From a virus (lineage: Duplodnaviria > Heunggongvirae > Uroviricota > Caudoviricetes), in the IMG/VR virus record IMGVR_UViG_2778261347_000004: 6,803 nucleotides of DNA, one strand, 5' to 3'. Under the pieces are notes generated by a model. That model did not search any database. It saw nothing but the letters and a program-made list of their open reading frames with translations, and was not told where the DNA came from. Every line of letters begins with the position of its first letter. Within the stretch, counting starts at the first letter, position 1. Below, in pieces: positions 845 to 2,430 of this stretch. Made by a program: the position numbers and the translations under genes.

Positions 845-2221
845 TCATACGTCAGCCCCTTGTGCATATCGTCTGCCACGCGAAGCAGGTGCATTTGATG
901 CTGTGCAAATCTGTCTGGCTTCATCCTGGTCACATGCAACAAAGTGTCCGTTACAGAACCGCTGGTAAACCGTACCAAGTGGGCCAAACCGGTTTTTCGT
1001 CACAATGATTTCAGCAAATGGTGCGGCGCTACTGTTCTCGTCATATACCGCTTCCCGATAGAGCATGATGATTGAGTCTGCGTCCTGCTCAATGCTTCCT
1101 GAATCACGCAAATCTGCGTTTGTCGGGCGTTTGTTTGGTCGCTTCTCAACATCGCGCGAAAGCTGACTTAGGGAGATAACAGGCGTTTTCAGGTCTTTCG
1201 CCATCGCCTTCAGGCTTCCTGAGATGTGAGCAATTGCGAGGTCGTTGCGGTCTGCTTTCGGCTTCTCAATCAGGCCAAGATAATCCGCCATGATGAGTGA
1301 CAGGTTTGGATTTTCCTGTTTGTTCCGCTCTGCGATTGAGCGAATTTCTTCTACCGATAACCGCGAGGCATCGACTACCCATACATCCAAATCTGCAAGC
1401 TGACTCATGCCGTTAGCAACACGCGCCCAGCCTTCGTCATCCATCGATGCAGGATTTCGCAGTACGCTAACCGACATCCTCCCGGCGTTGGCAATGCTCC
1501 GCTCTGCAATCTGCAATGCGCTCATTTCCATCGAGAAAATCAACACTCCGCGCCGGACGTCAGAACCAGGAATAACGCGGCTTGCAACACCTTCGGCAAT
1601 CTTCAGCGCCAGTTCGGTTTTCCCCATACCAGGACGAGCGGCGATAATCACCAGGTCTTCCGCGTTCATCCCTCCGGTGATGGCGTCAAGTTCTTCGATT
1701 CCGGTCTTCAGGGTATCTGACTCTTCTCCGTTCCTCAGACGCCTGTCAAGCGTGTCAGTGTAGTCAGTGATGATTTCCCCTAACCGTACAGGTTTAACCT
1801 CGTCACGGGGCTTTCTGATGGCTGAGAGACGCTTTACAAGCTCGTCCATCGCCTGACTCGATGTATCGATGGTTCCGCTCTGAATTGGTTCACGCATTTC
1901 GTCCATGATTTCCAGCACCAGACGGCGGTGATAGTTATCCGCGACCATTCCGGCATATCCCTTCAGGTTTGCGGCACTCGGGCAGTTTTTGCTGGTCATC
2001 AGGATTGACGTGAAATGCTCCTCTCCGCACGCCTCGGCAACCATCAGCGCGTCGATTAGGTTTCTGTTTCTCGCCTGCTTACGGATAACTTCGAAGGCTT
2101 TCCGGTAGAGCGGAATTGAAAACGCTTCCGGCTCCAGCGTTGCCAGAACGTCGCTGGCGGTTGGTGTTAATCCACCAATCAGCAAGCCACCGATAACGCT
2201 CGCTTCGATATCCTGTCTCAT
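845..2221 (-). CDS. Replicative DNA helicase, DnaB family (P22 gp12-like), 458 aa
   Basis: Long ORF; Walker A motif [10 protein letters not shown]; DnaB-like N-terminal domain; GGGGG Shine-Dalgarno before ATG 2221; ATG overlaps a TGA of an upstream reading frame (ATGA at 2218-2221). Confidence 0.92.
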
Positions 2222-2430
2222 GCAATCCCCCTGTCTGCAAACTTCCCTTCCCGAACTCCCGTTAACGAGTCTTCCCTCAGCAGGTAATCAAAATCTGCCG
2301 TCCAGCCCGTGTCGTTGTCTCCGAAGTAAAACGGCTTGGCCTGATGCACAAACGCCCTGACATACGCTCTGAAACCGTCCACGTTTGGCGTTTTCGTTTC
2401 TCGTTGACCGCAACAGCGTGTGGAAGTCTG
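2218..2430 (-). other. Alternate-frame open segment, probably the authentic C-terminus of the O-like initiator (frameshift relative to 2277..3005)
   Basis: Frame with codons at plus 3n+1..3n+3 is open from 2430 to a TGA at 2218-2220 overlapping the helicase ATG; encodes ...[54 protein letters not shown]; contains no ATG. Confidence 0.5.

Follow-up and report, generated by a model that had tools for sequence, protein, structure and literature searches.

Is the replication initiator gene on this stretch of viral DNA a gene inactivated by mutation, an artefact of sequence assembly, or a working arrangement in which the protein is made across two frames, in two pieces or in a truncated form? The stretch analyzed here (hereafter, the window) is the complete 6,803-bp contig NKNR01000107.1 of the draft assembly GCA_002458035.1. 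In the first-pass annotation, an O-like initiator was held to be split from its C-terminus by a −1 shift near positions 2385–2402; the initiator is indeed separated from its true C-terminus by such a shift, and the predicted interval contains the actual junction, at 2387–2395.

The minus strand of the window carries the early-right operon of a lambdoid phage, in which cro-like and cII genes are followed by a small gp53-like ORF, the initiator and a DnaB-type helicase, and cI and an N-like gene lie on the plus strand (Table 1). At least 80% of the window was found in 50 of the 5,426 complete Escherichia coli genomes, and the 25 genomes listed among these 50, all at 100.0% identity, are mostly O26 strains (e.g., 97-3250, H19, and 11368). 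The window is best explained as a segment of a lambdoid/P22-like prophage of E. coli O26:H11. The stretch containing the helicase gene is identical to the O26 reference.

Table 1. Features of the 6,803-bp window (positions count from its first nucleotide).
Feature	Position	Strand	Description and basis
DnaB-type replicative helicase gene	845–2221	−	Intact, 458 aa, HK97 gp55/P22 gp12 type; Pfam DnaB + DnaB_C, E = 4.6e-78; TIGR00665, TIGR03600
Stranded C-terminal remnant of O	2218–2394	−	−1 frame, intact residues 216–273 (KTPNVDGF...ADRGIA); translation, HK97/O26 identity, PHROG 345
O-like replication initiator ORF	2277–3005	−	242 aa
Out-of-frame tail of the 242-aa ORF	2277–2387	−	Residues 207–242, ...RQILITC + TGA stop at 2279–2277; no similarity to intact protein past residue 206
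Deletion junction	2387–2395	−	Single retained copy of GAAAACGCC (GGCGTTTTC on the plus strand); exactly 34 nt missing
Authentic part of the O-like initiator gene	2388–3005	−	Residues 1–206; identical to O26 prophage protein residues 1–206
A+T-rich stretch	2543–2580		~80% A+T; follows the iterons immediately, in the sense in which O is transcribed; read from sequence
Probable origin iterons	2581–2666		About four palindromic ATTAGCnnnnnnGCTAAT-like copies, 21–24-nt spacing; direct-repeat families and inverted repeats (repeat search)
Small gp53-like ORF	2992–3153	−	
cII	3189–3554	−	
cro-like gene	3577–3822	−	
cI	3883–4620	+	
N-like gene	5391–5663	+	

Outside the replication genes, a 98-aa ORF (4661–4957, plus strand) with a hydrophobic N-terminus and without a Pfam family in the precomputed matches lies directly downstream of cI, surrounded by a low-GC patch (36–37%) at 4400–5200; its position is that of the rex/sie-type accessory genes expressed by lysogens in lambdoid phages. 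A hypothetical ORF of 164 aa (6059–6553, minus strand), which has no recorded Pfam match, ends in two C-terminal CxxC pairs (CAHC...CPRC) suggestive of a zinc ribbon. The left end of the contig is ninB-side and the right end has a hypothetical gene, and both presumably mark the points where the sequence becomes common to other lambdoid prophages of the genome. An Rfam scan of the window returned zero matches, and a promoter and terminator scan of 2100–3900 found nothing exceeding shuffles, the two “terminators” called there being miscalled iteron palindromes.

The 242-aa ORF retains a complete N-terminal O-type origin-binding domain (Phage_rep_O, PF04492; residues 19–113, E = 1.7e-33 in Pfam), and the corresponding TIGR01610 model (phage_O_Nterm) matches the intact homologue. 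The ORF stops at a TGA (2279–2277) located 55 nt upstream of the helicase ATG (2221–2219), as had been described, and its last residues, suspected of being out-of-frame translation, proved to be so: homology to intact O ends at residue 206. The −1 frame is open from 2430, just past a stop at 2433–2431, to a TGA at 2220–2218 that overlaps the helicase start codon as ATGA. Its translation contains no ATG, and the protein-like tail that it was proposed to encode is a real one, identical to residues 216–273 of the 273-aa O proteins of HK97 and of the O26 prophage. This identity marks the −1-frame stretch as genuine coding sequence; it is not open merely by chance.

The proposed comparison with O-family proteins, which was expected to yield a single homologue match crossing the two frames, gave precisely that outcome, with HK97/O26 O and PHROG 345 alike divided over both frames. 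In the 297-position profile of PHROG 345 (O-like), the 242-aa ORF covers positions 1–231 only (E = 1.9e-65) and the −1-frame fragment alone matches positions 236–295 (E = 9e-29), whereas the intact homologue covers positions 1–295 in a single frame. The window gene thus gives no full-length O-family match (PF04492/TIGR01610/PHROG 345) in one frame, and since this match is split over two frames, the gene is a pseudogene of the O family and not an intact member. Homologues ending where the 242-aa ORF ends would have contradicted this picture; the 242-aa form occurs on a single contig.

Alignment with intact relatives revealed the nature of the lesion, a 34-nt deletion (11 codons plus 1 nt) of a size unforeseen in the first-pass annotation; a single-base indel is thereby ruled out. 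The three-way alignment of the window with HK97 and Stx1a_10051 contains one 34-column gap and is otherwise 98.9%–99.9% identical. In the intact O26 reference, the 9-nt sequence GAAAACGCC (minus strand; GGCGTTTTC on the plus strand) occurs twice, 34 nt from start to start, and apart from the iterons this pair is the only direct repeat of at least 9 nt within 100 nt that a repeat search found in the intact gene. The parental sequence reads, on the minus strand, CGAGAAAC GAAAACGCC GCCTGAAGAAAATCATCCCGCAACT GAAAACGCC AAACGTGG, and that of the window CGAGAAAC GAAAACGCC AAACGTGG, the missing DNA amounting to one copy of the repeat and the 25-bp spacer. The breakpoint is ambiguous anywhere within the retained copy, along which the alignment slides by 9 nt. 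The deletion removes residues 207–215 (RLKKIIPQL) outright and, because 34 = 33 + 1, also shifts the frame by −1 after residue 206, stranding residues 216–273 out of frame.

Slipped-strand mispairing and microhomology-mediated deletion typically leave one trace, the loss of one repeat period with one copy retained. The window conforms to it: the deleted block is bounded by direct repeats in the parent and is exactly as long as the repeat period (34 nt), a single 9-nt copy survives in the derivative and the breakpoint is ambiguous. We found no difference from deletions of this kind and no hairpin-forming sequence between the repeats; the type of mutation is a textbook one, and nothing in it departs from known kinds. 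A hairpin-assisted deletion was rejected, as the 59-nt parental segment folds no better than its shuffles (DNA fold −2.5 kcal/mol, z = 0.7).

How the lesion is distributed was assessed by comparison with phages and E. coli genomes. Intact relatives, comprising HK97 gp54 and its counterparts in Stx phages and E. coli O26:H11 prophages, are 98.7%–100% identical, and GAAAACGCC is present in them twice at the 34-nt spacing. Region 2150–3050, compared by megablast with phage genomes, matched 195 records (identity up to 99.9%), among them HK97, Nil2, many Stx1 and Stx2 phages, and P22-like Salmonella phages, and nearly all of the full-length phage matches listed fall into two pieces that span 935 bp versus the 901-bp query (one spans 934 bp). 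The 25 E. coli matches listed behave likewise, in two pieces spanning 6,837 bp, i.e., the 6,803-bp window plus 34 bp. In a base-by-base comparison with strain 11368, the deletion and one single-nucleotide polymorphism (SNP) at 5144 were the only differences. The SNP, a T/C difference from E. coli O26:H11 str. 11368, falls in the non-coding stretch that separates the N-like gene from the 98-aa ORF; across the whole window, the bit scores of other O26 genomes exceed that of 11368 by five, and these genomes are listed at 100.0%. In HK97, Stx phages and O26 prophages, O is one 822-nt ORF of 273 aa (the intact O26 sequence being NC_013361.1 3293360–3294181), and in HK97 and O26 this intact ORF overlaps the helicase gene as ATGA.

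The deleted allele itself was found nowhere else. A 60-nt query spanning the junction had no match in the 5,426 complete E. coli genomes or in 50,697 phage records (a local BLAST control indicated that the low-complexity filter does not suppress this query and that partial matches exceed the E-value limit used), and the exact 32-nt junction pattern was absent from the GTDB species-representative genomes, IMG/VR, and JGI metagenome contigs. Among approximately 15 billion proteins, the 242-aa product occurs on exactly one contig. Its cluster at 90% identity has 1,543 members, and of the 15 listed, 13 are 273 aa long, one is 182 aa long and one is the query itself. Since neither the junction nor the 242-aa product was encountered elsewhere, the allele is private to assembly GCA_002458035.1, and the window O gene is most likely an ordinary pseudogene, seen in one assembly only. 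The 182-aa form belongs to E. coli FRIK920, where it is present on 7 contigs; independent truncations of the O gene therefore do occur in prophages of enterohemorrhagic E. coli (EHEC).

Two causes had been put forward in the first-pass annotation, an inactivating mutation and an assembly indel, and both remain live. The probable explanation, in our view, is a private mutation in which the 34-bp deletion inactivated the initiator of a prophage whose lineage had defects already. An unlikely, albeit serious, alternative is that the deletion is an assembly or consensus artefact or a minority variant and that the prophage of the isolate has an intact 273-aa O. Such an outcome could be reached if an assembly bubble had been resolved to a minority deleted subpopulation, if templates had switched between the 9-nt repeats during library preparation or PCR, or through a consensus error. 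That the window comes from a fragmented draft assembly as a single 6.8-kb contig, and that its junction and 242-aa protein are found nowhere else in very large collections, are both points in favor of an artefact; uniqueness, however, is also what is expected of private mutations in single isolates. NCBI is, moreover, the only listed source of the 242-aa protein, which is not recorded from the Logan read re-assemblies, where many members of its cluster appear; this pattern can count toward an artefact but is compatible either with reads that were never deposited or with a mistake limited to the assembly as submitted. Against an artefact, De Bruijn and overlap assemblers work with words far longer than 9 nt, so that the junction would have to be present in the reads, and the deletion of exactly one repeat period with one copy retained bears the signature of real slippage on DNA. 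The rest of the contig, furthermore, is 100.0% identical to several O26 genomes with no other gap reported, which argues against a consensus of low quality.

It is very improbable that the locus represents a functional arrangement, be it a programmed −1 frameshift, expression of the C-terminal piece from the GTG at 2382, or a selected truncated origin-binding protein. The −1 frame is open across the junction, the GTG at 2382 begins a 54-aa ORF and the truncated protein keeps the complete Phage_rep_O domain, points that speak for such an arrangement; yet the deletion would in any event leave the protein nine residues short, and an allele confined to one contig gives no sign of selection. Programmed frameshifting had been judged unlikely from the outset for want of a slippery heptamer, and we concur: the zero-frame codons (GAG AAA CGA AAA CGC CAA ACG TGG) contain no X XXY YYZ heptamer around 2380–2400, no A/T run longer than 4 occurs near the junction, and O is one uninterrupted 273-aa ORF in each relative examined. 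With no Shine-Dalgarno-like sequence ahead of the GTG at 2382 and a two-frame layout that is not conserved, we reject both programmed frameshifting and a split gene.

The part of the gene upstream of the deletion probably contains the origin of replication. The origin of phage lambda lies within O and consists of four palindromic iterons followed by a 40-bp A+T-rich region, and initiation there begins with an ori-O complex, which gives way to an ori-O-P-DnaB complex (PMC5043065). In the window gene, the repeat search and reading of the sequence located the same O-family feature, iterons with an A+T-rich region inside the gene (Table 1). By analogy with lambda, a replication origin is probably situated within O at 2543–2666, and the A+T-rich stretch at 2543–2580 is its probable unwinding element. 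The iterons are untouched by the deletion, and the same repeats are present in the intact reference. Just past the A+T-rich region, positions 2510–2533 (minus strand, ACCCCCTTACCCCCTAACGGGGGCGG) form a G/C-rich inverted repeat, CCCCC-TAAC-GGGGG, whose codons specify the PLPPNGGG linker of O; the repeat may belong to the right-hand boundary of the origin or be nothing more than linker codons.

If the deletion is a genuine mutation, slipped-strand mispairing or another microhomology-mediated event between the 9-bp GAAAACGCC copies would have removed the 34 bp in vivo, and translation past residue 206 would then continue out of frame through 36 nonsense residues to the stop ahead of the helicase gene. 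The truncated product keeps the origin-binding domain and the linker and loses the conserved C-terminal module of ~58 residues along with residues 207–215; the origin, as a cis site, and the helicase gene are intact. In phage lambda, O binds the iterons through its N-terminal part and, through its C-terminal part, brings the P-DnaB complex to the O-ori complex. By analogy, the C-terminal module of the HK97/P22-type O, lost from the window protein, would recruit the phage’s own DnaB-type helicase. Several otherwise different PHROGs of phage initiators and helicase loaders (10469, 19658, 5810, and 1347) also match the C-terminal fragment, each at its very C-terminal end; this similarity suggests a conserved functional module and is consistent with a portable one that binds a partner. 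Searches of Pfam, NCBIfam, and PDB sequences returned no model or structure for the module, which is covered by PHROG profiles only, and in the literature on the P22/HK97 O C-terminus we found no direct statement on its role.

On this analogy, the window O gene is most likely a null allele. With a null O, an induced prophage depends on another prophage for a compatible O in trans and is otherwise unable to begin replicating; the prophage would thus be replication-defective, and trans-complementation by co-resident prophages is conceivable. The deletion also abolishes, in the translated frame, the ATGA translational coupling to the helicase gene, as the ribosome terminates 55 nt upstream. Because the helicase gene has a Shine-Dalgarno-like sequence of its own (AGGGGGA, 4 nt before the ATG), the loss of coupling is probably not decisive. 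It is highly doubtful that the truncation is a selected “grounding” allele, with the tail lost and the origin-binding domain kept, in which case lethal runaway replication of the prophage after SOS induction would be stopped and an origin-occupying fragment, made on derepression, could hinder co-resident or superinfecting phages with the same iterons, including many Stx phages with the same O type.

Comparison with known systems places the window gene with the initiators of the HK97 gp54/Salmonella phage P22 gp18 type, which are accompanied by a DnaB-type helicase (HK97 gp55/P22 gp12). HK97 is 98.9% identical to the window at the nucleotide level across the O-P region and has the same N-terminal Phage_rep_O domain, the same gene order (cII, gp53-like ORF, O, and helicase) and the same iteron block inside the gene. 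The window allele differs from that of HK97 in lacking 34 nt, in encoding 242 aa (206 of them authentic) instead of 273 and in having lost the ATGA overlap in the translated frame. The resemblance to lambda O and ori-lambda is more general, consisting of an initiator gene in which the origin is embedded as palindromic iterons and, after them, an A+T-rich region, and of a two-part protein with an iteron-binding N-terminal part and a helicase-bringing C-terminal part, the latter division being textbook knowledge for lambda and an analogy here. The window differs from lambda in that the partner is a phage-encoded DnaB homologue and not the P loader, and in that the C-terminal module, for which we infer this partner, has no Pfam or NCBIfam model.

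Defective lambdoid prophages of EHEC are well documented, for example, as the “defective prophage pool” of O157 Sakai (PMC2669165). The window resembles them in being derived from a lambdoid prophage with inactivating lesions in an EHEC lineage and differs in that its lesion is a private 34-bp deletion in one draft assembly and is not lineage-wide. In strain 11368, the same prophage combines P22-type virion genes (portal, P22 capsid, gp4, gp10, and tail needle) with lambdoid early genes and carries an integrase with an internal stop as well as several other pseudogenes. The interrupted integrase is located at NC_013361.1 3305043–3306233, and the prophage also contains a DUF2737 pseudogene and a truncated ead/Ea22-like gene. 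Given that the prophage is already defective in at least strain 11368, a further inactivating mutation is unsurprising.

The locus offers a clean example of a deletion between 9-bp direct repeats. It also illustrates that frameshifts confined to a single contig of a draft assembly need read-level confirmation and that prophage inducibility should be inferred from drafts with caution. The finding has little import beyond annotation, where the correct entry is a pseudogene (frameshifted replication protein O) in place of a 242-aa protein accompanied by an orphan ORF, and this isolate’s prophage is best recorded as probably incapable of replicating alone. As the O type concerned is common to many Stx-converting phages, such lesions are relevant to predicting inducibility and the amplification of phage-borne genes from EHEC draft genomes.
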